Source: a virus
IMG/VR virus record: IMGVR_UViG_3300043179_000057
Coordinates: 1,601 to 65,600 of that record
Reading direction: 5' to 3' (one strand)
Length of the DNA stretch: 64,000 nucleotides
The notes under the pieces are model-generated. The model made no database searches and was not told the origin of the DNA. It was given only the letters and a program-made list of their open reading frames with translations. Position numbers and translations under genes: made by a program. Below are positions 10,415 to 64,000 of the stretch, piece after piece (within the stretch, counting starts at the first letter, position 1; each line of letters opens with the position of its first letter).

Positions 10415-13400
10415 CGAGAGGAACTTCGCCAGCCCGCACGTCCACCCGATGTCCCTCGACACGGGATCGACCGTGGAGTCCTTCGCCGACCGCGAGGAGG
10501 AGCTGGGTACCGGGGCCATCACGGCCACCGACCACGGCAGCCTGGCGGCCTGCCGCATGGTCTACGACGTGGCCAGGGAGCGCAAGCTGACCCCCATCCT
10601 GGGATGCGAGTTCTACTTCCGGGACGACGACTGCACCATCCTCCTCGGGGCCGGCGCCCAGAAGAACAAGGACGGCAAGCTGGTGGACTTCGTCAAGTAC
10701 ATGCACGGCACCGTGCACGCGCTCGACCAGCCGTCCTACGAGCGCCTGGGGGCCCTCCTGTCTCACGCCGACGCCAGGGCGGAACAGCACGGGCAGGAGC
10801 GCAAGCCGCTGTTCTCGTGGAAGGAGATGGAGGAGATCGGGGGCCTGAACGTCACCCTGGGCTCGGGGTGCCTCATCGGCATGGTGCAGCGCCACCTCCT
10901 GGAGAGGGACGACGCGGCCACCGCGGTGGCCTACTACGAGCGACTGCGTGGCCTCGCGCGCCCCGGCCACTTCTACGTGGAGGCCTTCCCCCACGACTGC
11001 AGCCGCAACTACACCAAGGCGGTCTTTCTGACCCTGGAGGACGGCCGGAAGCTGCGCTACCACTTCGACAAGAACCTGAGGACGACCGAGGGGGAGACCA
11101 CGGCGGAGGCGCTGGCCTTCCGCAAGGTCCGAGGCAAGCTGCTGGCGGTCAAGCACTACCGGAAGTGGGAGGACGAGGCCTCCCCGGTCGAGATCGTATC
11201 GGTGGACAAGGTCGAGGGGTTCGTGGAGAACCAGTGTCGCCCGTGGTGCAACACGACGGACGTGCAGGCGGGGACGAACAGGTTCATGCTGGCCATGGCT
11301 AGGAGGTACGGCGACCCCGTCCTGGTCAGCGACGACGCCCACTACGCCCACCCGGACGACAAGATCGTCCAGGACGTACGCCTGGCGCAGAGCGGGCCGT
11401 GGAGGTTCTACGGCAGCTACCACCGACAGTCATCTGAGGACGCCTTCGCTTACTTCGGCGCCCGGATGGGCGTCCCCCGGGCCGAGTTCGACTCCTGGGT
11501 GGAGAACAACGCGGCGTGGGCCGCCAGGTTCAAGGACTTCCGGTTCGAGTACAAGCCCAGCCTGCCTGCGAAGTTCTACCCCGAAGACACCGTCTCCTAC
11601 ATGACCGAGCTGATCAACCGGCACGGGCGCATGCGGTGGGACGACCAGAGGTACAAGGCCAGGCTCCGGGCGGAGGTGGAGATGCTCCACCTCAACGGCA
11701 CCATCGACCTGCTGCCCTACTTCTTCCTGGCCGAGGAGGCGTGCCGGCAGTACGCCGACCAGGGCGAGCTTACCGGGGTGGGCCGGGGGTCGGCCGCCGG
11801 CCTCCTGCTGGCCTACCTGCTCGGCATCACGCACATGGACCCCATCCGGTACGAGCTGTCCCTGGAGCGCTTCATCACGCTGGACCGCATCAAGAGCGGC
11901 AGCCTGCCGGACATCGACCTCGACTTCCCCGGGCGCGAGCTGCTGACCCGGGAGGGCGGCTGGCTCGACAAGAGGTTCGGGGCCCACTACGCGCAGATAT
12001 CGGTGGACACGACCCTGAGGCTGCGAAACGCGGCCAAGGACGTGGCTCGCCTGACCCGGGGGCACGTCCCGCCCCAGGTAGAGGCCCTGACCAAGAAGTT
12101 CGCCCAGCCCCCCCAGAACGTGGACGACAAAGACTTCGTGTTCGGGTACGAGTCCGACGACGGCACGCAGGTCAAGGGCTCCATAGAGACCGACGAGGCC
12201 CTGCGGCAGTACATCCGGGAGTTCCCCCGGGAGTGGGGCATCCTGCAGAAGTGCCTGGGCCTGGCGCGGAACAAGGGCCGACACGCGGCCGGGTTCGTGA
12301 TCGCCAACCGGCCCATCCACGAGTTCATCCCGCTCACCTCGGTGTCGGGCCACAAGGTCACGCAGTACACGGCCCCCTCGGTGGAGGCGTGCGGCGGCGT
12401 CAAGATGGACTTCCTGGTCATCAACAGCCTCAAGGACATCGGCGCCGCGGTGCGTCTGGTCCAGCAGAGGGCCGGTGTGGGCATCCCGAAGGAGGGCGCG
12501 ACCATAGACGGGATCCACGTGCCGGCCCACCGCCTGGTGCCCTTCCGGGGGCGCCTATACGACGTGTGGGACCTGCCCGAGGACGACGCGGTGTTCACCG
12601 ACACCCTCAAGGGCCGGACCGAGACCGTCTTCCAGCTAGACACCCCGGGAGCCACCGGGTGGTTGAAGAAGTTCGACCACCTGCGCCCCGACGGGCGGCC
12701 GCTGATCTGCAGCGTCCTGGACGGGGCCGCCTTCACGGCCCTCGACCGGCCCGGAGCCCTGGACGTCGAGCTGAAGAACCCGGAGGGGGGTCCGCCCCAC
12801 AACGCCCTGGTGGAGTACGCCAGGAGGGCCCGGGGCCTCGCCCCTAGCCCGGACGTCCCCTCCTTCCTATCCGAGCTGTTCCCGGAGACCCACGGGGTCA
12901 TGGTCTACCAGGAGCAGCTCCAGCGCGCCTACCAGCACCTCACGGGCTGCAGCGGCCCCGAGGCGGAGGAGTTTCGCCGCAACGTGGCAAAGAAGAAGAT
13001 GGACAAGGTCGAGAAGGCCTTCCCGTTCTTCCTGGCCGGCGCCTCGGCCAAGCTCGGGGAGGAGAACGCGCGGGGGGTGTGGAAGTTCTTCATCACCTGG
13101 GCCAAGTACGGGTTCAACAAGTCTCACGCGGCGTGCTACGCCCTGACGGGGTACGTGTGCGCCTTCATGAAGCACCACTACCCCCTGGAGTGGTGGTGCG
13201 CCGTGCTACGCAACGCGCACAAGGACGAGGTGTGTGTCCAGTTCTGGCCCTTCTGCGGCCACCTGGTGGACCTCCCCGACCTGTCTAGGCTGTCCAACGT
13301 GTTCGAGATCCACGGCGACCGCATCGTCGCCCCGGTCAGCCTCCTGCACGGGATCGGGGAGAAGGCGCACGGTCAGATCCTGCGCTACGCCCCCTACTCG

Positions 13401-14333
13401 GACCTGAACGACTTCTGCGCCAAGATCGTGCGCCACAAGAAGGACACCGGGGCCTACGTGGCCTCAGAGGTCGTGGACAAGAAGACCAAGCAGACCAAGG
13501 TCGAGCTGAAGTTCCGCGGCGGGCACAGCTCCATCCATCGCGGGGTCGTCCACAACCTGATCGTCTCGGGCACCATGGACTCAATCCTGCCCGAGGCCGT
13601 CCGCGGGGGGACGATGCTGGACAAGCTGGACGCCTTCGAGGCGGCTATGGAGGCCGCCGGGGAGAAGCCCGAGAGGGTCCCCGGATGGTACGCCCAGGTC
13701 GGGCCCCTGGCGAGGTACCTGTTGCGACGCGCCATCCTCCCGGCCTACTCCGAGGACCTACGGCCCGTCCTCCTTCAGGTCGGCTACAAAGGGGTCTCCA
13801 AGACCCCGGACGGGTGGTTCTGGGAGGGCCAGACGATGCTGGCCGACGCCCGCGACATGCGAGCCATCGACGAGCTGCCGTTCATCCCGGAGGGCGGCCT
13901 CCAGGTCGTCGTGGTGGGTCACGTTCTGGAGGTCAGGAACTTTCCCACCAGGCGCGGTCCGGCACGTGAGTTGCACCTTGACATCTCCGGGGAGAGGGTT
14001 AAAGTTGTCGCGTGGTCGAGGAACGGAGAGCTTCCTAAGAGGGTCAGCGCGGCGGGGGACGTGGCAGACGCGATAGTCCTGGTCGGGCTGTCGAAGTTCA
14101 GGGCCGGCAAGTCCTTCATGATAGACTGGGTCCAGGTTGCGCAGGAGCAGGTAGAGAAGGCTAAGGAGCGGTGGAATGTCGAAGAAGCGAAGCGTAAAGA
14201 CGATAGCAAAAGAGGTCCAAAAGGCAGAAAAGCTGACCAAGATGGACCCGGCCGACTACCCGGAGGCGACAAGGGCCGGGTGGGAGGCAAAGGCGAACTC
14301 CGCCAGGGAGGGCCTGCCGTCCCTCAAGGCTGA
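10407..14333 (+). CDS. dnaE: DNA polymerase III alpha subunit (family C)
   Basis: PHP motifs HVH, TDHG, GCEFY, DAHY; GRGSAAG..AYLLGIT..DP; PDIDLDF; KMDFL; VYQEQ; YGFNKSHA. Confidence 0.95.
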   Translation: MADERNFASPHVHPMSLDTGSTVESFADREEELGTGAITATDHGSLAACRMVYDVARERKLTPILGCEFYFRDDDCTILLGAGAQKNKDGKLVDFVKYMHGTVHALDQPSYERLGALLSHADARAEQHGQERKPLFSWKEMEEIGGLNVTLGSGCLIGMVQRHLLERDDAATAVAYYERLRGLARPGHFYVEAFPHDCSRNYTKAVFLTLEDGRKLRYHFDKNLRTTEGETTAEALAFRKVRGKLLAVKHYRKWEDEASPVEIVSVDKVEGFVENQCRPWCNTTDVQAGTNRFMLAMARRYGDPVLVSDDAHYAHPDDKIVQDVRLAQSGPWRFYGSYHRQSSEDAFAYFGARMGVPRAEFDSWVENNAAWAARFKDFRFEYKPSLPAKFYPEDTVSYMTELINRHGRMRWDDQRYKARLRAEVEMLHLNGTIDLLPYFFLAEEACRQYADQGELTGVGRGSAAGLLLAYLLGITHMDPIRYELSLERFITLDRIKSGSLPDIDLDFPGRELLTREGGWLDKRFGAHYAQISVDTTLRLRNAAKDVARLTRGHVPPQVEALTKKFAQPPQNVDDKDFVFGYESDDGTQVKGSIETDEALRQYIREFPREWGILQKCLGLARNKGRHAAGFVIANRPIHEFIPLTSVSGHKVTQYTAPSVEACGGVKMDFLVINSLKDIGAAVRLVQQRAGVGIPKEGATIDGIHVPAHRLVPFRGRLYDVWDLPEDDAVFTDTLKGRTETVFQLDTPGATGWLKKFDHLRPDGRPLICSVLDGAAFTALDRPGALDVELKNPEGGPPHNALVEYARRARGLAPSPDVPSFLSELFPETHGVMVYQEQLQRAYQHLTGCSGPEAEEFRRNVAKKKMDKVEKAFPFFLAGASAKLGEENARGVWKFFITWAKYGFNKSHAACYALTGYVCAFMKHHYPLEWWCAVLRNAHKDEVCVQFWPFCGHLVDLPDLSRLSNVFEIHGDRIVAPVSLLHGIGEKAHGQILRYAPYSDLNDFCAKIVRHKKDTGAYVASEVVDKKTKQTKVELKFRGGHSSIHRGVVHNLIVSGTMDSILPEAVRGGTMLDKLDAFEAAMEAAGEKPERVPGWYAQVGPLARYLLRRAILPAYSEDLRPVLLQVGYKGVSKTPDGWFWEGQTMLADARDMRAIDELPFIPEGGLQVVVVGHVLEVRNFPTRRGPARELHLDISGERVKVVAWSRNGELPKRVSAAGDVADAIVLVGLSKFRAGKSFMIDWVQVAQEQVEKAKERWNVEEAKRKDDSKRGPKGRKADQDGPGRLPGGDKGRVGGKGELRQGGPAVPQG
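13978..14005 (+). promoter_or_regulatory. Putative internal sigma70 promoter within dnaE
   Basis: TTGACA-16nt-TAAAGT in a locally AT-richer patch. Confidence 0.45.
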
Positions 14334-14988
14334 GTACCGGGAGGCGCTGCAGCAGCAGAGCGTTGCCGTCTTCGTGGTGGACGGGCGCTATTCCGGGAGG
14401 TTCGTGGAGCTGGCCATCCAGGAGGGGGTGGAGCTGTCGGCGGACGCGTCGCAGTTCTACAAGAAGCTCGCGCGCCGCGTCTGGACCACCATGGGGGGCT
14501 CGAAGGAGTTCACCTCCGACCAGTACGGAACCCTCATCCGCGGCCTCGTGAGCGAGGCCCGGGCGCTCGGCTTCAAGGACGTCACCATCTCGACGTCCCA
14601 GCCCTTCACCAGCTTTCAGGTGACCAGCGAGCAGGCGGTCGTCAAGTACGTTCGTGCCACGGTTCGACGCCTGACGGGAGACCGCATCAACAACGAGCTG
14701 ATCGCGCGGGCCATCACAGCGGCCGCCCTGGACTCGAAGGAGGGGCCGGGGGACGGACCGGTAGCGGTCCTGGTGTACGGGCTTGCCTCGGAGGAGGAGG
14801 CCAGGGCCGCTCAGCAGGCGTGGTCCTGCCCAACCAGCCGGATCGCAGACCCGGAGAAGGAGCCGACGGCCGACGACGTGCTGGCCTTCTTCCCGCGTCC
14901 GACCACGGATTCTCAGAGAGCGGCGGAGACCCCCAAGGGGGAAGTCTCCGAAAAGGAAAAACAAGAAGAAGAGACAGGGAGGGAATGA
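14176..14988 (+). CDS. Hypothetical protein, 270 aa
   Basis: Strong RBS AAGGAG at 14163-14168; ATGA overlap with the next gene. Confidence 0.75.
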   Translation: MSKKRSVKTIAKEVQKAEKLTKMDPADYPEATRAGWEAKANSAREGLPSLKAEYREALQQQSVAVFVVDGRYSGRFVELAIQEGVELSADASQFYKKLARRVWTTMGGSKEFTSDQYGTLIRGLVSEARALGFKDVTISTSQPFTSFQVTSEQAVVKYVRATVRRLTGDRINNELIARAITAAALDSKEGPGDGPVAVLVYGLASEEEARAAQQAWSCPTSRIADPEKEPTADDVLAFFPRPTTDSQRAAETPKGEVSEKEKQEEETGRE

Positions 14989-16109
14989 CGATGAGCAGTA
15001 ACCAGGCATACGACGACGACATCGCCGGTAGGTTCGGCAAGACCAACTACGAGAGAAGGAGCGTCTTCAAGAAGCCCCTCAAGTGGGAGGAGGGCGAGAA
15101 CGACTTCGGCATCTTGCCCGCGATGCACTCCATGCGCAACGTGGACAAGGGCTTCCGGCGCTACCTGACCCTCCACTACGGGTACCAGGTCCCCAGGACG
15201 GACGACCCCACCAAGACGCGCACCATCAACTTCCTCTGCATCGAGGACAAGAACCTGCGCACCGGGATGGTGAAGCAGGAGTGCCCGCAGTGCAACCTGT
15301 ACAACGAGCGGGACGCGCAGTTCGAGGAGACGGTGGACGGCTACAAGCGCGAGGGCAAGAGCGACGCCGAGATCGACCTGCTCACGGAGTCCAAGCAGAA
15401 GTGGCTCAAGGACTTCCGGCCACAGCGAAAGTGGTGGATGAACGTGTACGCCAAGGGGGAGTTCTTCTCGGCGGGCATCTCCCACAAGACCATGAAGCTG
15501 CTGGAGGTCGAGCTGGACAAGCTCTTCAAGCTGGGCATGGACCCCATCTCCATCGACAAGATGGTGATCTGGACCCTCAACCGCATCGGGGACCCCAGGA
15601 AGAACATCGGGGCGTTCACCGAGACGATCTCGCCGCGGATGGTCAACGAGGAGTTCCACGGGCGCGTCATCAGGTCTGAGAAGATCGTCTCTCTGACCAA
15701 CGAGCAGGCCCGGCAGGCCCTGGACACGTGCCAGGACCTGGCGACCATCGGGGAGTACCACCTGACGTACGACCAGATCCTGGCCTTGACCAGGTGCACC
15801 GAGGACCCGGAGGAGGTCCTGGCCATCGTCAGCCAGCCGTCTCGGCGGCAGGCACCCCCGGCCCAGGAGGTCCGCCAGCAGCCGACGGCCGCCCCCAGGG
15901 CGCAGACGCCCCAGGCCTCGGAGCCGGCCGCCGTCTCGTCGCACGGCCACGACCGGGCGGAGGCGTCCGTCACCATCCGAGTGGCCACCCAGGCGGCCCC
16001 TCCGGCCCCGGCCCAGGAGGTGGCCGCACCAGCGCCCGCGGCCCTCGCCATGGAGACCGACGAGGAGTTCATGGCGAAGTTCAACATCGGCAAGAAGACG
16101 ACGGGGTAG
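14985..16109 (+). CDS. T4 gp32-like single-stranded DNA-binding protein
   Basis: EGENDFGILP, HYGY, C...CPQC zinc site, Pro/Ala/Gln linker, acidic-aromatic tail ETDEEFMAKF; lies upstream of the recombinase. Confidence 0.75.
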   Translation: MTMSSNQAYDDDIAGRFGKTNYERRSVFKKPLKWEEGENDFGILPAMHSMRNVDKGFRRYLTLHYGYQVPRTDDPTKTRTINFLCIEDKNLRTGMVKQECPQCNLYNERDAQFEETVDGYKREGKSDAEIDLLTESKQKWLKDFRPQRKWWMNVYAKGEFFSAGISHKTMKLLEVELDKLFKLGMDPISIDKMVIWTLNRIGDPRKNIGAFTETISPRMVNEEFHGRVIRSEKIVSLTNEQARQALDTCQDLATIGEYHLTYDQILALTRCTEDPEEVLAIVSQPSRRQAPPAQEVRQQPTAAPRAQTPQASEPAAVSSHGHDRAEASVTIRVATQAAPPAPAQEVAAPAPAALAMETDEEFMAKFNIGKKTTG

Positions 16110-16598
16110 ATGGCCGACGACCTGCTGGTCTGCCCGCTTGGCTCCGGGGAGGGGTCGTTCCAGATCGACCTCGCCAGGGTCATGCGGGCGGACAGCCGGC
16201 ATGCGGAGGTTGGGACCGTCAACACCTTCAAGGCGCCGGAGCTGATGGCGGCCTTCAACATGGCGTGGATTGACGCGTCCAAGGCCGAGCGGCTCCTGCG
16301 GGCCCAGATGAAGAAGGCCGAGCGGTCCCTGGACGCCAGGAGGGCGGTCCTGCTCCTCGAAGAGGTGCCCAAGAGGCTGAAGGCGGCCGGGTACGACAAG
16401 TCCTCGGAGGACCTCCGCAGGGCGGTCCTGTCGCAGGACGTCGAGTACGCGGCCATTCAGGAGCGGATAGACCGCCTGGAGGCCTACGCGGAGATGATGA
16501 AGGTGCACGCGAAGGGGTTCGAGAACAGCTACACCGCGGTGAAGAAGGCGCTGGGGTCCGACCCTAGGTCGCCGCCAGTAAACGACGGACGATGGTAG
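16110..16598 (+). CDS. UvsY-like recombination mediator, putative
   Basis: All-helical; sits between SSB and RecA; LSQDVEYAAIQERIDRLEAYAEMMKVHAKGFENSYTAVK resembles the UvsY C-terminal helix pattern. Confidence 0.5.
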   Translation: MADDLLVCPLGSGEGSFQIDLARVMRADSRHAEVGTVNTFKAPELMAAFNMAWIDASKAERLLRAQMKKAERSLDARRAVLLLEEVPKRLKAAGYDKSSEDLRRAVLSQDVEYAAIQERIDRLEAYAEMMKVHAKGFENSYTAVKKALGSDPRSPPVNDGRW

Positions 16599-16617
16599 GA
16601 CGGAGGCACAGACGAGG

Positions 16618-17727
16618 ATGGCAAAGGACTTTCTGAAGAAGCTACAGGAGCTGGAGGGGGCGGTTCGGGGGGAGTACAACCCCTTCAACCACACGATCAG
16701 GACCCCCTCCCCGAGCACGAACTTCACGCTCGGCAACACCCACGGGCTGCCCCTCGGGTACTCGTGCATATTCTGGGGTCCGCCGGGCGAGGGAAAGTCC
16801 CTGCTCAGCAACCTCACCATCGGCCAGATGCACCGCGACGACCCCGAGGCCATCGCCCTCAAGTGGGACACCGAGTTCCGCGAGGAGGGGCAGATGACCA
16901 AGGAGTCGATGGCCATGTTCGGTATCGACCCGAAGCGCTACCAGGCGTGGAGCGTCAACAGCCCGTCCGAGGTGTTCGACCGGTTCGAGCAGGACGTGGC
17001 TGACCTGTGCGACCAGGGCGCCCCGATCAAGCTGGCGATCATCGACTCCATCACCGGGGTCAAGGGGAGGAGGTCGGAGAACGCCACAACCGTGGACACC
17101 ATGCAGAGGGGGGACCACGCGGCCACCATCCAGGACGGTCTGAAGATGATCCTGGCGGTCCAGCGCAAGTACCGGATCGCCGTCATCCTGACCGCCCACC
17201 AGCGGGCCGAGCAGGACGAGAAGGAGCTGGCCCGCCACGCCACGGTCCGCATGGCGGCCGCCTGGGGCATGAAGCACTACGGCGAGTACTACCTCAACGT
17301 GCGCGCCAACCGGAACAAGGACGGCCGCACCGACCTCCTGGAGAGGTCCCTGCGCGACGACTCCCTCCAGGACGTGCGTCTGGGGGAGGGCGAGCTGACC
17401 GCCCGCAAGATCCACACCACCGTGACGAAGTCGGCCTTCGGACCGTCCGGCCGCACCGGACAGTTCACCTTCGACTTCAAGAGGGGCATCATCAACGTCC
17501 ACGAGGAGGTGTTCCTCCTCGGGGTGGCCCGCGGCATCATCGAGGTGCTCCCCGGCAACCGGTTCTACGCCTTCGGCGGCAACAAGTGGAACGGGAAGGC
17601 CGCCATCCTGGAGGAGCTGGAGAAGAACGCGGAGATGCAGTCCGAGGTCCTCAGGCAGCTCCGCCAGAAGGACCTGGCCGGCGCCTGGTCCAAGGACGAG
17701 ATCCCGGAGCAGGGGGGAGAGGGGTAG
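16618..17727 (+). CDS. recA: RecA/UvsX recombinase
   Basis: Walker A GPPGEGKS, WDTE, Walker B IIDSIT, KSAFGP..R. Confidence 0.92.
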   Translation: MAKDFLKKLQELEGAVRGEYNPFNHTIRTPSPSTNFTLGNTHGLPLGYSCIFWGPPGEGKSLLSNLTIGQMHRDDPEAIALKWDTEFREEGQMTKESMAMFGIDPKRYQAWSVNSPSEVFDRFEQDVADLCDQGAPIKLAIIDSITGVKGRRSENATTVDTMQRGDHAATIQDGLKMILAVQRKYRIAVILTAHQRAEQDEKELARHATVRMAAAWGMKHYGEYYLNVRANRNKDGRTDLLERSLRDDSLQDVRLGEGELTARKIHTTVTKSAFGPSGRTGQFTFDFKRGIINVHEEVFLLGVARGIIEVLPGNRFYAFGGNKWNGKAAILEELEKNAEMQSEVLRQLRQKDLAGAWSKDEIPEQGGEG

Positions 17728-60293: not shown

Positions 60294-60577
60294 GGTTCCC
60301 GGGCGAGGGGACGCACGCCCCGGTGCCGGCCGAAGCCGCCGGCCAGGACGTCCCCCTGGTCAACGCGCCGCAGATCGACGTGTCCGAGCTGGGGTCCTGC
60401 CTGGCCAACGGGGAGCCCTTCGCGGTCGCCTGGTGGCAGCGCGCCGACGGGATGTTCGTGTACAGCCTGAGGTCCCAGGAGCCTAGCAAGGTGGACGTAT
60501 CCGCCGTCGCCAAGGCGTTCGGCGGCGGGGGCCACGCCCGCGCCGCCGGGTTCCAGGTCCGCGAGCTGCTCTTCTAG
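60269..60577 (+). CDS. Isolated DHHA1 domain (C-terminal part of a DHH phosphoesterase)
   Basis: VYSLRS…VDVSAVAKAFGGGGHARAAGF; no DHH domain upstream. Confidence 0.65.
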   Translation: MAKNARRVRFPGEGTHAPVPAEAAGQDVPLVNAPQIDVSELGSCLANGEPFAVAWWQRADGMFVYSLRSQEPSKVDVSAVAKAFGGGGHARAAGFQVRELLF

Positions 60578-60579
60578 CC

Positions 60580-60705
60580 CTACCAGGGCCCGAGGGCCGG
60601 GGGCCGGAGGCGTCGCTCGACGCGCAGGACGAGGTCTAGCAGGCGCAGCAGCGGCACGGCCACCGCCCACCTGAAGAGCCAGTGCGCCGCCCTGCGCACG
60701 CGCAC
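60580..60705 (-). CDS. Small hydrophobic/basic peptide
   Basis: RVRRAAHWLFRWAVAVPLLRLLDLVLR; 41 aa. Confidence 0.4.
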   Translation of the reverse strand: MRVRRAAHWLFRWAVAVPLLRLLDLVLRVERRLRPPALGPW

Positions 60706-60707
60706 GC

Positions 60708-61037
60708 CTACCTGGAGCAGGTCCCGCAGGGGCCGGGCCGGTACTGGTGCCCCACGCCGGCCCTCTCCCTGGCGGGGGCCGCCCTCCTGCAGGCCTCGCG
60801 GCCCCAGCCACAGGTGCGGCAGGACTGCCTGGAGCCGGCGCAGCGCCGGCACGAGGGGGCGGTGGGGGTGCGGACCGGGTCCGGAGGGGAGGGCGCGGGC
60901 GCCTCGGGGGCCGCGACGACCCCCTCCACGGCGGCCGGGGGCGGATCGGTCGGTTCGGCTACGGGATCGGTCGGTTGTCGGTCGATCCCCTCGGGGGCCA
61001 CGGAGGCCCCCTCCGCCCTCTTCCTCCGCCTCCCCAC
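60708..61037 (-). CDS. Pro-rich protein with C-terminal CxxC motifs
   Basis: 109 aa; CRRC, CRTC, CGTC. Confidence 0.5.
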   Translation of the reverse strand: MGRRRKRAEGASVAPEGIDRQPTDPVAEPTDPPPAAVEGVVAAPEAPAPSPPDPVRTPTAPSCRRCAGSRQSCRTCGWGREACRRAAPARERAGVGHQYRPGPCGTCSR

Positions 61038-61049
61038 GTCCTACGCCCC

Positions 61050-61211
61050 CTAGCCCCGGCGGCGCCAGCGGGCCCAGCGCGGCGACTTGATGCCTGCGAC
61101 CATGCAGGACGCCCACCAGAGGCCGAACGAGGCCAGGTCGGCGACGTCGGTCGCGAGCGCCAGCGGCCACGCGGCCAGCAGGCGGGACTTCTTGATGATG
61201 TGGTGCAACAT
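61050..61211 (-). CDS. Small hydrophobic protein, 53 aa
   Basis: ATG 61211 with RBS GGAGG, downstream of a late motif. Confidence 0.5.
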   Translation of the reverse strand: MLHHIIKKSRLLAAWPLALATDVADLASFGLWWASCMVAGIKSPRWARWRRRG

Positions 61212-61226
61212 TTCTTACCTCCAGGG

Positions 61227-61235
61227 TAAGATTGC
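61227..61235 (-). promoter_or_regulatory. Putative late promoter GCAATCTTA
   Basis: Same motif as in the tail module. Confidence 0.6.
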
Positions 61236-61245
61236 CCCCGAGGGC

Positions 61246-61274
61246 TTGACCGGGCGGGCCCGGAGGGGTACGGT
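61246..61274 (+). promoter_or_regulatory. Putative sigma70 promoter, leaderless
   Basis: TTGACC-17nt-TACGGT; ATG 61281 follows by 6 nt. Confidence 0.65.
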
Positions 61275-61280
61275 GTGCCC

Positions 61281-61703
61281 ATGGGCGACAAAGCGACGAG
61301 GCGTATCCTGCTCCTGAACGCGGCCGGGCTCCTGGGCCTGGCGGTGGCGGCTCTCTACGGGGTGCCGCAGAGCGTGTTCGTGAACGACTCCAGCCACGTG
61401 ACCGTGTTCATCGCCGCGGCTTTCCTGTTCGCGATGCAGCGCGTCTTCACCCGCGACACCAGGACCGCCCGCCAGGTGGCGTCCCTGCTGGTCATGCTCG
61501 GCCTGATAGGGACCACGATCGGGGCCTCGGGCGCGTTCCTCGCCCTGGACCCCACCACGTTCACCGACCCGGCCAAGGGGGCCGCCTCGGTGGCCGCGGC
61601 CCTGCACGAGTTCGGGACGGGCATCGTCTGCACGATCCTCGGCTCCGTGACCAACGTGTGGACCACGGTGTGCTGCATGGTGGCGGAGAGGGGCGACGCT
61701 TGA
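61281..61703 (+). CDS. MotA/TolQ/ExbB proton-channel-like membrane protein
   Basis: Four hydrophobic segments; VMLGLIGTTIG and GTGIVCTILG match the conserved C-terminal TM pair. Confidence 0.7.
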   Translation: MGDKATRRILLLNAAGLLGLAVAALYGVPQSVFVNDSSHVTVFIAAAFLFAMQRVFTRDTRTARQVASLLVMLGLIGTTIGASGAFLALDPTTFTDPAKGAASVAAALHEFGTGIVCTILGSVTNVWTTVCCMVAERGDA

Positions 61704-62347
61704 CCCGCCAGGGGGCCGATCGAGGGGAGGGGCACCAGGACGACTTCCAGGTCGTCTTCCGCGACCTGCTGATGCTCCTGATCACCGGCCTGGTGGTCCT
61801 CCTGGGCGTGACGATCATGTACATGGGGGCCAAGGCCAGCCAGGCGGCCCAGGCGCCCCCCGTGGGCAACGTCGTGGTGGACGTGCAGTGGCACCAGGGG
61901 GTGGACGCGGACGTGGACCTGTGGGTCCAGGGGCCGGGGGACAGCCGGCCGGTGGGCTACTCCAACCGAGGAGGCGAGACCATGAACCTGCTGCGCGACG
62001 ACGTGGGCTGGAACGGGGACCCGGGCGTCCTGAACTACGAGGACTCCGTCAGCCGGGGGGTCGTCCCCGGCAGGTACGTGGTGAACCTCCACGCGTACGG
62101 GCCGGACTCGGAGCTGGTGTACCCCCTGGAGGCCGACGTCAAGGTGCTGTGCGTGGCCCCCAAGGCCGGCCTCCGGGAGGTCCTCAGGAGGCGGGTCTCC
62201 CTGGACCAGGTCGGGAGGGAGGTCACGGTCGCCAGCTTCGATCTGGACAATCAGTGCGGCCTGGTCCCCGGCTCCCTGAGCGAGGACTACGTGCCGCTGC
62301 GCGGCGCCTGGACCGACCCAGGCCAGCCGCAGGAGGATGAGCGATGA
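61700..62347 (+). CDS. Single-TM partner with an intramembrane Asp and a YfaP/DUF2135-like periplasmic domain
   Basis: FRDLLMLLITGLVVLLG; DADVDLWV..P, LLRDDVG, NYE, PGRYVVNLHAY. Confidence 0.65.
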   Translation: MTRQGADRGEGHQDDFQVVFRDLLMLLITGLVVLLGVTIMYMGAKASQAAQAPPVGNVVVDVQWHQGVDADVDLWVQGPGDSRPVGYSNRGGETMNLLRDDVGWNGDPGVLNYEDSVSRGVVPGRYVVNLHAYGPDSELVYPLEADVKVLCVAPKAGLREVLRRRVSLDQVGREVTVASFDLDNQCGLVPGSLSEDYVPLRGAWTDPGQPQEDER

Positions 62348-62841
62348 GCCTGTGGGTGTTCGTCCCGTGCCTGATCGCGGCCCTGCTGGCCGGGTACTGG
62401 ACGGCGAGGGGCCGCGTGGCCGTCCTGGCCTTCGTCCTCGGGGGCGCGCTGGCCCTCGCCGCCTCCGTGTCCTTCCTGGGCCGCCCCAAGCCCACGCAGT
62501 GGGCCATCCTGGAGCGACCGGTGAAGGAGGCCTCGGTCCTGTACTTCTGGGTCGAGCCCGAGCGCCAGATCCTCCTGCTCCTGACCTGGCCGGGCCAGGA
62601 CGAGCCGCGCCTGTACTCCAGGCCGTGGGACGAGGAGCTGGCCAAGAGGCTGAGGGAGGCCAGGGCCGAGGCCGGGAAGTCCAGGCGCCCGGTCGTCATG
62701 CGCAGGCCGTTCGACGGGGCCCGCCTAGCCCCCGGGGGCGGCGGGTCGGGGCGTGGCGACCAGACCATGGACAACGCCGGGGCCGCCTCTCGGGTGCACG
62801 TGGCCCCGCCCCCGCCCCTCCCGGTGAAGGGTCCGTCGTGA
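62344..62841 (+). CDS. Membrane protein (two N-terminal TMs)
   Basis: ATGA-coupled; SFLGRPKP…PRLYSRPWDEELAKRL. Confidence 0.7.
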   Translation: MSLWVFVPCLIAALLAGYWTARGRVAVLAFVLGGALALAASVSFLGRPKPTQWAILERPVKEASVLYFWVEPERQILLLLTWPGQDEPRLYSRPWDEELAKRLREARAEAGKSRRPVVMRRPFDGARLAPGGGGSGRGDQTMDNAGAASRVHVAPPPPLPVKGPS

Positions 62842-62974
62842 CCGAGCTGCTCGCCTTCGCCGGGGACCACCCCTCGTGTTCTGCTTCAGCCTGTGGGTGC
62901 TGGCGCACGCTACGGCGTACGCGGCGGCCCGCTTCAGGCCGATCGTGGTCACCATCAACAGGACCAAGCCGTGA
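62838..62974 (+). pseudogene. Small membrane protein with an apparent 1-nt deletion
   Basis: One extra C in CACCCCTC gives TELLAFAGDHPLVFCFSLWVLAHATAYAAARF…KP-stop, overlapping the next GTG. Confidence 0.5.
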
Positions 62975-63258
62975 ACCGTAGGGGCCTCCTCGGGGCGCTC
63001 CTAGCCTTCCCGGTCCTGCGGGCCGCCGCTCCGGCAGCCGCGGTCGTCACGGGCCTGTTCGCGCCCCGCGGTGGCGTCCAGGACCTCGTGATGGCGCTGG
63101 AGGCCGGGTCGTACGCCGGGCCGCTCGTCTCGGGCCAGGCCCTCCAGATCGAGGACCTGTCGCCGGTCATGCGTGTCGTGACCTTCGAGGATAGGAAGCT
63201 CAGGCTGCTCCCCAGGCTGGCCGACGCCGGGTGGCGCTTCACGAGGACGTTCACGTGA
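62971..63258 (+). CDS. Twin-arginine-signal microprotein with a capsid-N-terminus-like segment
   Basis: NRRGLLGALLA; DLVMALEAGSY…GQALQIEDLSPVMRVVTFEDRKLRL. Confidence 0.6.
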   Translation: MNRRGLLGALLAFPVLRAAAPAAAVVTGLFAPRGGVQDLVMALEAGSYAGPLVSGQALQIEDLSPVMRVVTFEDRKLRLLPRLADAGWRFTRTFT

Positions 63259-63467
63259 GACCGCCGGTGGACTACCTCGACCCGACGGCGCACCGCTACC
63301 TGGACGGACTGGCGGGCTGCCGGGAGTGCGGCCGCCAGGAGGAGGCGCACCGGCCCGGCGCGCCCGACGACCCCGCCAACTGTTCGAGCGCGTCGAAGAG
63401 TTCTAGGAGCGCCGGGAGCAGCCGTGGGCGGCGTGATCCCCCAGTGCCGGTACGTGCTCCCGTATGA
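63255..63467 (+). CDS. Small hypothetical protein (CxxC..H)
   Basis: GTGA overlap; CRECGRQEEAH. Confidence 0.4.
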   Translation: MRPPVDYLDPTAHRYLDGLAGCRECGRQEEAHRPGAPDDPANCSSASKSSRSAGSSRGRRDPPVPVRAPV

Positions 63468-63756
63468 CGAGGCGTCATACAACAACTGCCGTCGCGCCGA
63501 CGGCCACCGAGGCCGCCACCTGACCCACGGGGAACGGATGAGGGACCCCGCCCCGAGACGGGACGCCCGGGTCAAAGGGCCGCCCATCGAGCCCCCGCGC
63601 GTAATCGAGGCGATCAGCGTCCCGACCCGCAAGCAGTTGACCCACATCGAAAGGGCCCTGAGGGGCTCCCGAGGGAGGGCGGCGGCCATGAAGGCTTGGT
63701 TCGCCGTTCTTCAGATGATGAAGCCGGCAGTCGTCTGTCGCGAGGAGTACCTGTGA
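63424..63756 (+). CDS. Hypothetical protein
   Basis: 110 aa; C…CRRADGHRGRH. Confidence 0.5.
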   Translation: MGGVIPQCRYVLPYDEASYNNCRRADGHRGRHLTHGERMRDPAPRRDARVKGPPIEPPRVIEAISVPTRKQLTHIERALRGSRGRAAAMKAWFAVLQMMKPAVVCREEYL

Positions 63757-63950
63757 CCTGGCGCCACGTCCCCGTATCGTCTCCCAAACTCACCCCCGGG
63801 CGGTGGACCTGCACGGTGGACGAGGTCCGGAGGCTGGGGCCGTTCGTGACGCGCAACACCTGCGGCGTGCGGCACGTGAAGGAGGGCGCCGCCCGCCGGC
63901 ACGCCGAGAGGCTGAACAGGGATCGCATGGTCCCGCTGGAGGGGGCGTGA
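63753..63950 (+). CDS. Small hypothetical protein
   Basis: GTGA overlap; WTC…TCGVRH…AARRHAERLN. Confidence 0.5.
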   Translation: MTWRHVPVSSPKLTPGRWTCTVDEVRRLGPFVTRNTCGVRHVKEGAARRHAERLNRDRMVPLEGA

Positions 63951-64000
63951 GGGTTATACAGAGCGTCAAGAGGTGGGCACAGGGCAGGCTGGACCGCCCG

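Follow-up and report, generated by a model that had tools for sequence, protein, structure and literature searches.

A putative capsid-arm mimic with a twin-arginine-type leader encoded in an accessory region of an Mx1-like myophage

The small accessory proteins SaPI1 CpmB, P4 Sid and the tail assembly blocker Tab act on the interface of scaffold and N-arm or block virion assembly in another way, and these effects have been demonstrated. Here we describe a gene at positions 62971–63258 (+ strand) of a 64,000-nucleotide stretch of viral DNA, hereafter the window, which corresponds to bases 1601–65600 of the 81,240-bp IMG/VR virus record IMGVR_UViG_3300043179_000057 (judged 49% complete). The gene encodes a protein of 95 amino acids (aa), P0001, to which residue numbers refer unless another protein is named. 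CpmB, Sid and Tab can be compared with P0001 only at the level of function: they have no sequence or fold relation to it, are not copies of their targets and carry no export-type leader. Its closest described counterpart in sequence is the major capsid protein (MCP) of the SPO1/Mx1 type (Myxococcus phage Mx1 WNM70327.1, phrog_752; SPO1 Gp6.1, PDB 9vel; more distantly phi812, PDB 5lii). The ALEAG helix and the pattern GxALQxEDLSPVM..VTFxDxxxKL of this MCP are also present in P0001. However, the MCP has ~465 aa, and P0001 comprises the arm only, without E-loop, P-domain and A-domain; its hydrophobic twin-arginine (RR) leader is found on no MCP.

The nearest catalogued counterpart of the gene as a whole is T4 gene 61.1. 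Its product (NP_049649.1, 54 aa, annotated as a hypothetical protein) matched the gene 23 frame with residues 3–40 (45% identity; E 1.4e-5 for the T4 genome alone). Like the P0001 gene, it is a small free-standing gene of an early or non-structural region that copies the N-terminal region of the MCP of its own lineage. The two are not homologous, since the parent MCP family of gp61.1 is gp23, and gp61.1 has no twin-arginine or hydrophobic leader; it is a leaderless analogue of P0001. The N-terminus of gp61.1 resembles the T4 capsid-targeting sequence. Gene 61.1 is located at NC_000866 18966–19130 (L114 2967–3131, - strand), two genes from spackle (sp), and the match in gene 23 is at 105116–229.

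When P0001 was compared by tblastn with 50,697 phage records, the matches were annotated MCP genes only. The best of them was the MCP of Mx1, with residues 36–84 aligned to MCP residues 9–60 (50% identity, E 2e-5). The part of P0001 concerned, which we refer to as the N-arm module (Table 1), was 46–50% identical to residues 9–60 of the Mx1 MCP, and the module hidden Markov model (HMM) gave a score of 80.7 bits for the N-arm motif. An IMG/VR scan seeded with the motif returned 75 loci, nearly all of them MCP genes of ~465 aa with the module at residues ~5–60; the phages carrying these genes had genomes of 150–176 kb and 30–66% G+C. The full-length MCP matched SPO1 Gp6.1 at E 7e-20, the module profile alone matched residues 16–65 of the same protein at E 3e-8, and the phi812 MCP matched the MCP family at E 2e-8. 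A previous sequence-only reading of this DNA had noted a close resemblance to the N-terminal arm (N-arm) of HK97-fold MCPs of large myoviruses, and the tblastn search, the profiles and the comparison with PDB 9vel bear this out: the C-terminal two thirds of the protein are a copy of such an arm. The similarity goes far beyond chance and shows the module to be homologous to the N-terminus of the SPO1/Mx1-type MCP.

A complete HK97 fold comprises the E-loop, the P-domain with its spine helix and the A-domain in ~460–480 aa, whereas P0001 ends about 12 residues past the arm. P0001 is thus a fragment-derived paralogue and not a capsid protein. AlphaFold 2 (AF2), run with an alignment of 42 sequences, produced no globular fold (mean predicted local distance difference test score, pLDDT, 58; predicted template modelling score, pTM, 0.22), and only three short helices were predicted, at residues 3–10, 32–45 and 64–69. 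According to this model P0001 has no autonomous fold, as expected for an arm that takes up its structure only when bound to a partner.

P0001 is a member of a small family. Searches with phmmer/HMMER against 1.8 billion protein representatives yielded 21 relatives (E 1e-7 to 9e-4), some of which were N-terminal pieces of true MCPs. Two of the hits, P0010 and P0018, were rejected as spurious repeat proteins, and a word-indexed search for longer relatives gave none at E ≤1. Six metagenomic proteins of 81–118 aa are built like P0001: an RRxΦΦ motif and an uncharged run come first, followed by a spacer that contains proline, by the module and by a short tail. We define the RR-type family as P0001 together with these six proteins (P0005, P0007, P0011, P0013, P0019 and P0025). 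Mean identity within the family was 52% in the module and 34% in the leader and spacer. Each of the six relatives is encoded by a complete stand-alone gene among other small same-strand genes, on contigs which carry Mx1-like genes (DnaE, thymidylate synthase, TROVE protein).

The module was also found outside the RR-type family: behind a Cys-containing N-terminus (P0008, P0023), behind a basic/aromatic N-terminus with poly-proline (P0009, G003 L099, G006 L106) and behind other N-termini (P0021, P0024), so that besides the RR leader it is fused to at least four kinds of N-terminus. The complete 171.7-kb genome G001 encodes a 337-aa accessory protein with the module embedded at residues 134–185 (L081 2599–3612, equal to G001:C1 about 16.8–17.8 kb, - strand), and the normal MCP of this genome is located 64 kb away. 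Since the module stands behind several N-termini and within the 337-aa protein, it is a portable unit which has been joined repeatedly to different handles. Among ten relatives' genomes scanned, an extra accessory copy of the module was clear in three and weak in a fourth. No family of Pfam, PHROG or NCBIfam covers P0001, and no paper in the collection searched joins twin-arginine leaders with capsid fragments; capsid-arm mimics are apparently an undescribed kind of phage accessory protein. In the 337-aa protein of G001 an unrelated N-terminal domain precedes the module, and a Cys-rich C-terminal region follows it. In G006 (L106 ~470–740 and 1400–1794) two nearby small open reading frames (ORFs) both begin with an aromatic/basic helix followed by poly-proline, and only the second has the module, which suggests a second type of handle fused to different cargoes.

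To estimate the age of the copy, P0001 was compared with 53 distinct MCP N-arms. The MCP N-arms were 75% identical to each other in the median (5–95% range, 58–91%), and P0001 was 54% identical to them in the median and 58% at most; the medians of the other accessory copies were 42–65%. If P0001 had been copied recently from the MCP of its phage, its resemblance to other MCPs should be as strong as the parent's, and P0001 is therefore an old, faster-evolving paralogue of the MCP N-arm. It is still constrained: eight columns do not vary among MCPs and mimics, and P0001 keeps each of them (L, E, G, L, G, L, L, M) as well as nine nearly invariant ones, and the frame is intact. In two genomes with extra copies, the own MCP ranked third among the 53 in similarity to the copy, with negligible margins. 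In a tree of the module, which is short (about 50 residues), the RR-type copies formed no clean clade.

These data bear on one explanation of such a gene, namely that illegitimate recombination brought a copied piece of the capsid gene into the accessory region, where its frame is still open by chance. The gene is absent from Mx1, and its exact DNA is held by a single public metagenome, a freshwater run which is probably the source sample (no RNA dataset was among the listed holders), both as would be expected of a non-functional leftover. However, retention of the invariant columns and of an open frame despite the divergence is a strong argument against a decaying fragment: the copy is old, being at most 58% identical to any MCP where MCPs are 75% alike, yet it is undecayed. 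Moreover, seven proteins show the same two-part build at 41–52% identity with intact frames, the two arginines and all invariant residues of the module, and the P0001 gene has its own Shine-Dalgarno-like site and a coupled start and stop. We therefore disfavour this explanation and consider it very unlikely. P0001 is a selectively maintained accessory gene of an Mx1-like myophage, and its product would be a tethered peptide and not a folded domain.

The N-terminal part of P0001 had been described in the sequence-only reading as a twin-arginine leader. The RRxΦΦ pattern is indeed present and is kept in the six relatives, but the HMMs of the twin-arginine translocation (Tat) signal do not score P0001. 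Arg-3 and Arg-4 are invariant in all seven homologous proteins. Where the Tat consensus near the N-terminus is of the (S/T)-R-R-x-F-L-K type, P0001 has N-R-R-G-L-L-G, and the relatives have SRRGFF, TRRGLL, RRRTFL, GRRGFL, SRRQAL and NRRAFLK, the last with a textbook RRAFLK. For the h-region of a Tat signal we looked for at least about 13 uncharged, moderately hydrophobic residues after the arginines. The uncharged run of P0001 has 12 residues and is followed by Arg-17 and a second run of 15, and in the relatives the run has 13–25 residues. Mean Kyte-Doolittle values were 1.7–2.4, and about 2.0–2.4 for the hydrophobic runs of 12–25 residues. In all seven proteins the spacer between the arginines and the module is 22–55 aa long and contains 2–5 prolines. 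P0001 thus shares with Tat signal peptides an N-terminal polar residue, R-R-x-Φ-Φ, a moderately hydrophobic uncharged run and a following basic residue. It differs from them in having no clean AxA site and in its passenger, a ~60-residue unfolded peptide instead of a folded cofactor protein. A Tat-type signal is a plausible assignment for this leader.

If the signal works, the arm could act in the periplasm or the envelope, for example in superinfection exclusion, modification of an envelope machine or timing of lysis, having been co-opted as a generic binding strand. Consistent with export, RRxΦΦ is invariant in the seven proteins and is followed by uncharged runs of 12–25 residues, and one of the seven matched both Tat HMMs (sub-threshold, E about 0.09, range 0.08–0.1). 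Proteins with Tat signals were also among the language-model neighbours (scores 0.77–0.83, which are leads only), and the gene is coupled to a cluster of genes for membrane proteins. On the other side, the HMM support is sub-threshold in the family and nil for P0001 itself, the candidate AxA sites of P0001 are poor, and in several candidate sites of the family a proline stands at +1. Export would also leave unexplained why a periplasmic protein keeps the exact invariant residues of an arm from the capsid interior, and why the same module stands behind non-signal N-termini in other family members. Finally, the three membrane genes (61281–62841) were not found beside the relatives of the P0001 gene. 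We consider an exported factor of this kind quite unlikely.

The first half of the module recurs in a second head protein. In every relative examined, i.e., Mx1 and eight metagenomic relatives, the module profile matched the putative prohead protease ORF, always just behind the protease domain and over profile positions ~7–35. In the Mx1 protein (WNM70322.1) the match covers residues 238–267 (E 1e-7), and at 22 of these 30 positions the protease has the same residue as the N-terminus of Mx1's own MCP. The half of the module with KA(L/M)EAGxYNxAPxxLxGGxALQxE(D/S) is common to the protease and P0001, whereas the second half (DLSPVM..VTF..KL) is missing from the protease and kept by P0001, from which it follows that P0001 descends from the MCP and not from the protease. 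The first half of the N-arm is thus a functional motif common to two head-assembly proteins; it may be a docking element or an extended region of protease recognition or maturation cleavage. The protease ORFs, of about 520–1290 aa, are located at 13002–16721 in Mx1 (L003) and in L095, L096, L097, L100 and L107–L110.

The same motif could also be a tag. The module, in which the last part of the MCP propeptide and the maturation region would be included, would then serve for capsid targeting and protease recognition, and P0001 would be taken into the prohead and cut there by the prohead protease. T4 proteins with a capsid-targeting sequence are the model for such packaging, and T4 gp61.1, the 54-aa copy of the gp23 N-terminal region, is a candidate parallel. 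The ALEAG-region motif common to the MCP N-terminus and the segment behind the protease domain in nine phages is what would be expected of a recognition or cleavage region. However, no paper in the collection searched gives the maturation cut site of SPO1-type MCPs, and a hydrophobic leader of membrane type would be odd for a protein of the prohead interior. Packaging of P0001 therefore seems improbable to us.

Structural data on another phage indicate what a free N-arm could bind. In the SPP1 procapsid the scaffolding protein is held by the MCP through its N-terminal helix, and at a later stage the N-arm lies under the E-loop of a neighbour and pairs in antiparallel fashion with the N-arm of the adjacent capsomer (PMC6813328). 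A free N-arm would therefore have three generic potential partners: the scaffold, the MCP body and another N-arm. In the relatives of our phage, putative scaffolding proteins of 213–479 aa are encoded by the ORF just upstream of each MCP gene (L015–L087, e.g., L078 1905–2951). They have variable coiled-coil or low-complexity bodies and a conserved C-terminal domain ending in …KSDRxxINxFYL……IxHLLK, which is a candidate MCP-binding domain. A complex prediction for the C-terminal 110 residues of the putative G006 scaffold with residues 30–95 of P0001 gave a score of 0.00; it was run with no controls and weighs neither way.

We tentatively propose that P0001 is a mimic of the MCP N-arm, targeted to the membrane or the Tat pathway, that occupies the N-arm site on a head-assembly component and thereby tethers or sequesters it; this is the best-supported reading and is possible, although we stop short of calling it probable. 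The twin-arginine/hydrophobic leader, acting as a Tat-type signal or else as an anchor that is not cleaved, would bring the protein to the cytoplasmic membrane. The flexible Ala/Pro spacer would present an arm of ~50 residues, consisting of a helix ending in ALEAG and a strand region with GxALQxEDLSPVM..VTF. The free arm would take the site meant for the N-arm of the MCP on the capsid protein, the scaffold or the protease, and intermediates of head assembly, whether they belong to this phage or to a relative infecting the same cell, would be sequestered or tethered at the membrane.

Several points weigh against this proposal. Its weak point is topology: a cleaved Tat signal would leave the arm in the periplasm, where no capsids are assembled, and an N-in signal anchor would turn it to the periplasm too. 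For action in the cytoplasm one has to postulate, speculatively, that the leader is stalled at the membrane or associates with it peripherally. Neither PF10518 nor TIGR01409 matched P0001 even at E ≤10, although such short models have little power. A protein interfering with assembly would need to leave the phage that encodes it unharmed. No P0001-like gene was found in Mx1 by tblastn or the module HMM, and the gene is therefore dispensable for assembly. The 49%-complete record does not contain the MCP, scaffold and prohead protease of this phage, and thus no cognate comparison is possible. The data show that the gene is real, that its module is homologous to the MCP N-arm, that the build is conserved, that half of the motif recurs in the protease and that P0001 has no fold of its own; the membrane or Tat targeting, the partner bound and the effect on assembly are inferred.

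The arm could instead be directed at host immunity; a decoy was one of three roles suggested in the sequence-only reading, the others being inhibition of a competitor's assembly and an assembly anchor. Capsid proteins are frequent triggers of defence: Lit, a membrane protein, senses the Gol region of T4 gp23, and CapRel-SJ46 senses capsid protein. As a decoy or sponge, the tethered arm would mimic a capsid part sensed by an abortive-infection sensor and would titrate or mislocalise this sensor at the membrane before the capsid protein appears late in infection. The gene is situated among small genes of a non-structural block for which Mx1 has no counterpart, a position that would suit this role, and the relative P0019 is encoded in a block with a weak Acb2/Tad1-like match. 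The copies also evolve faster than the MCP arm, as do genes engaged in an arms race. On the other hand, a decoy is expected to track its own MCP closely, yet the copies are more diverged than the MCPs are among themselves. There is no known defence system sensing the SPO1/Mx1-type N-arm, the half-module in the prohead protease points to an assembly function of the motif, and Tat export would take a decoy away from cytoplasmic sensors. A decoy is in our opinion rather unlikely. We slightly favour an assembly interface over it because half of the module is found in the prohead protease, because the module is fused to several N-termini and because it has no autonomous fold.

The mimicry of the N-arm at the membrane might be one case of a general device of large phages, in which pieces of their own head proteins (an N-arm, a Gol-like stretch, a spine helix, portal fragments) are placed on a twin-arginine leader and serve as baits at the Tat translocon or inner membrane, coupling head assembly to the envelope. 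Such a bait might tether prohead initiation to the membrane, sense free capsid protein so as to time lysis, or sabotage the assembly of a competitor. The combination of leader and capsid arm is found here in the SPO1/Mx1-type MCP lineage, and a scan of the 81-kb record for other ORFs with an RR leader and a head-protein piece returned only P0001. We regard a general device as doubtful. If the arm copy does engage a head-assembly partner or a capsid sensor, P0001 would represent a new class of genes based on self-mimicry of a structural protein on a bacterial export-type leader. This would open a route to where and when the heads of large non-model phages assemble and to how related phages compete in one cell, with small peptide inhibitors or tethers of capsid assembly as a possible outcome. 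The comparison also flags a functional element in the maturation of SPO1/Mx1-type heads, namely the ~30-residue motif that the prohead protease has in common with the MCP N-terminus.

The ORF itself agrees with that given in the sequence-only reading: it runs from GTG at 62971 to TGA at 63256–63258 and encodes 95 aa, with the N-terminus V-N-R-R-G-L-L-G-A-L-L-A and, further on, DLVMALEAGSY...GQALQIEDLSPVMRVVTFEDRKLRL, as quoted there. In the region 63060–63240, the G+C content of its frame was 0.93–0.95 at the third codon position (GC3), 0.40–0.45 at the second (GC2) and 0.70–0.82 at the first (GC1). High GC3 with low GC2 is normal for a + strand gene. An overlapping ORF on the - strand (62955–63689) would show the opposite pattern, and the positional G+C content argues against it. 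At its start the gene overlaps with the stop of a hydrophobic ORF of 32 codons, and its stop overlaps the GTG of the next small ORF, in both cases within GTGA. The frame-specific GC3, the Shine-Dalgarno-like site and the GTGA coupling at both ends show that P0001 is the product of a real, intact and translationally coupled gene. The same 95-aa gene was called by a public gene caller on a 44.8-kb Logan contig, probably of the same sample, and the identical protein is present in the public protein collection as P0004. A scan of 60500–64000 revealed no promoter, and terminator-like sites were weak. A W/R/F-rich tail like that of P0001 is also present in P0009 and P0008. The features are listed in Table 1.

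Table 1. Location in the window of the P0001 gene, its parts and the adjoining genes
Feature	Position	Strand	Evidence or remark
Whole gene, 95 codons + TGA	62971..63258	+	ORF, translation, GC3 frame plot, gene call on Logan contig
Shine-Dalgarno-like AGGA, 7 nt 5' of the GTG start	62960..62963	+	Sequence reading
Twin-arginine motif (R3 R4), then uncharged hydrophobic run GLLGALLAFPVL (residues 5–16)	62977..63018	+	
Ala/Pro-rich spacer between leader and module, residues 17–33	63019..63069	+	AF2 pLDDT <50 here
MCP N-arm module, residues 34–84, homologous to MCP residues ~5–60	63070..63222	+	tblastn, HMM
Short basic/aromatic tail, residues 85–95; MCP similarity fades	63223..63255	+	Alignment
Hydrophobic mini-ORF of 32 codons; its stop overlaps the P0001 start (GTGA)	62876..62974	+	GC3 0.88–0.93 in its frame
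Small ORF P0003 (CxxC motif), coupled, with its start on the P0001 stop	63255..63467	+	Weak zinc-ribbon hint
Three coupled membrane genes (MotA/ExbB-like + two partners), directly upstream	61281..62841	+	ORFs, weak PF01618 match

The 32-codon ORF was left uncalled by the public gene caller. Its product would consist of a hydrophobic helix and a basic tail, and the operon of P0001 may thus encode a real membrane micro-protein here. The public gene caller ended P0003 after 49 codons, and its true end is uncertain. Searches of P0001 and its neighbours against Pfam and PHROGs gave nothing significant, and megablast of 61000–64000 against the phage collection gave no match.

The window has a G+C content of 69%. 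Large ORFs of the record encode DnaE, ribonucleotide reductase, a giant baseplate-J/Kelch protein and a tail-tube initiator. Mx1 is the only close cultured relative; its DnaE is 47% identical over 94% of the length, and the replication and baseplate/tail modules of the record are syntenic with those of Mx1. The + strand block that begins at ~56.6 kb and extends to the record's end lacks a counterpart in Mx1, except for the match of P0001 to the capsid gene. Gene context and this comparison place the gene in a non-structural block of small same-strand genes. The capsid gene, said before to be outside the window, is outside the whole record as well: searches of the 81-kb record with the Mx1 MCP and phrog_752 found only the N-arm piece, and the head module is missing from this fragment. 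P0001 as a first exon or as a split, intron-interrupted or broken half of an MCP gene was rejected, since the record contains no further piece of MCP. The 98.7-kb G006 (GC 0.66) was considered as the missing half of this phage and was also rejected, as DNA identity was only local.

No conserved gene neighbourhood was found among the family members, except for one lipoprotein-like protein shared with G001. This protein of 150 aa, with a lipoprotein-type signal (…AWGC) and an HExxH motif, is encoded ~290–740 bases beyond the window end (G000:C1 65888–66337, - strand). Its only relative among the fetched loci (L094 2062–2520, 28% identity, E 5e-9) directly adjoins the module-bearing gene of G001; it may be a linked partner or a coincidence. 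Farther past the window, the accessory region carries two HNH/AP2-type homing-endonuclease-like genes (G000:C1 70580–71095, + strand, and 71369–71911, - strand), one of which is 44% identical to the Mx1 HNH endonuclease at 63037–63582.

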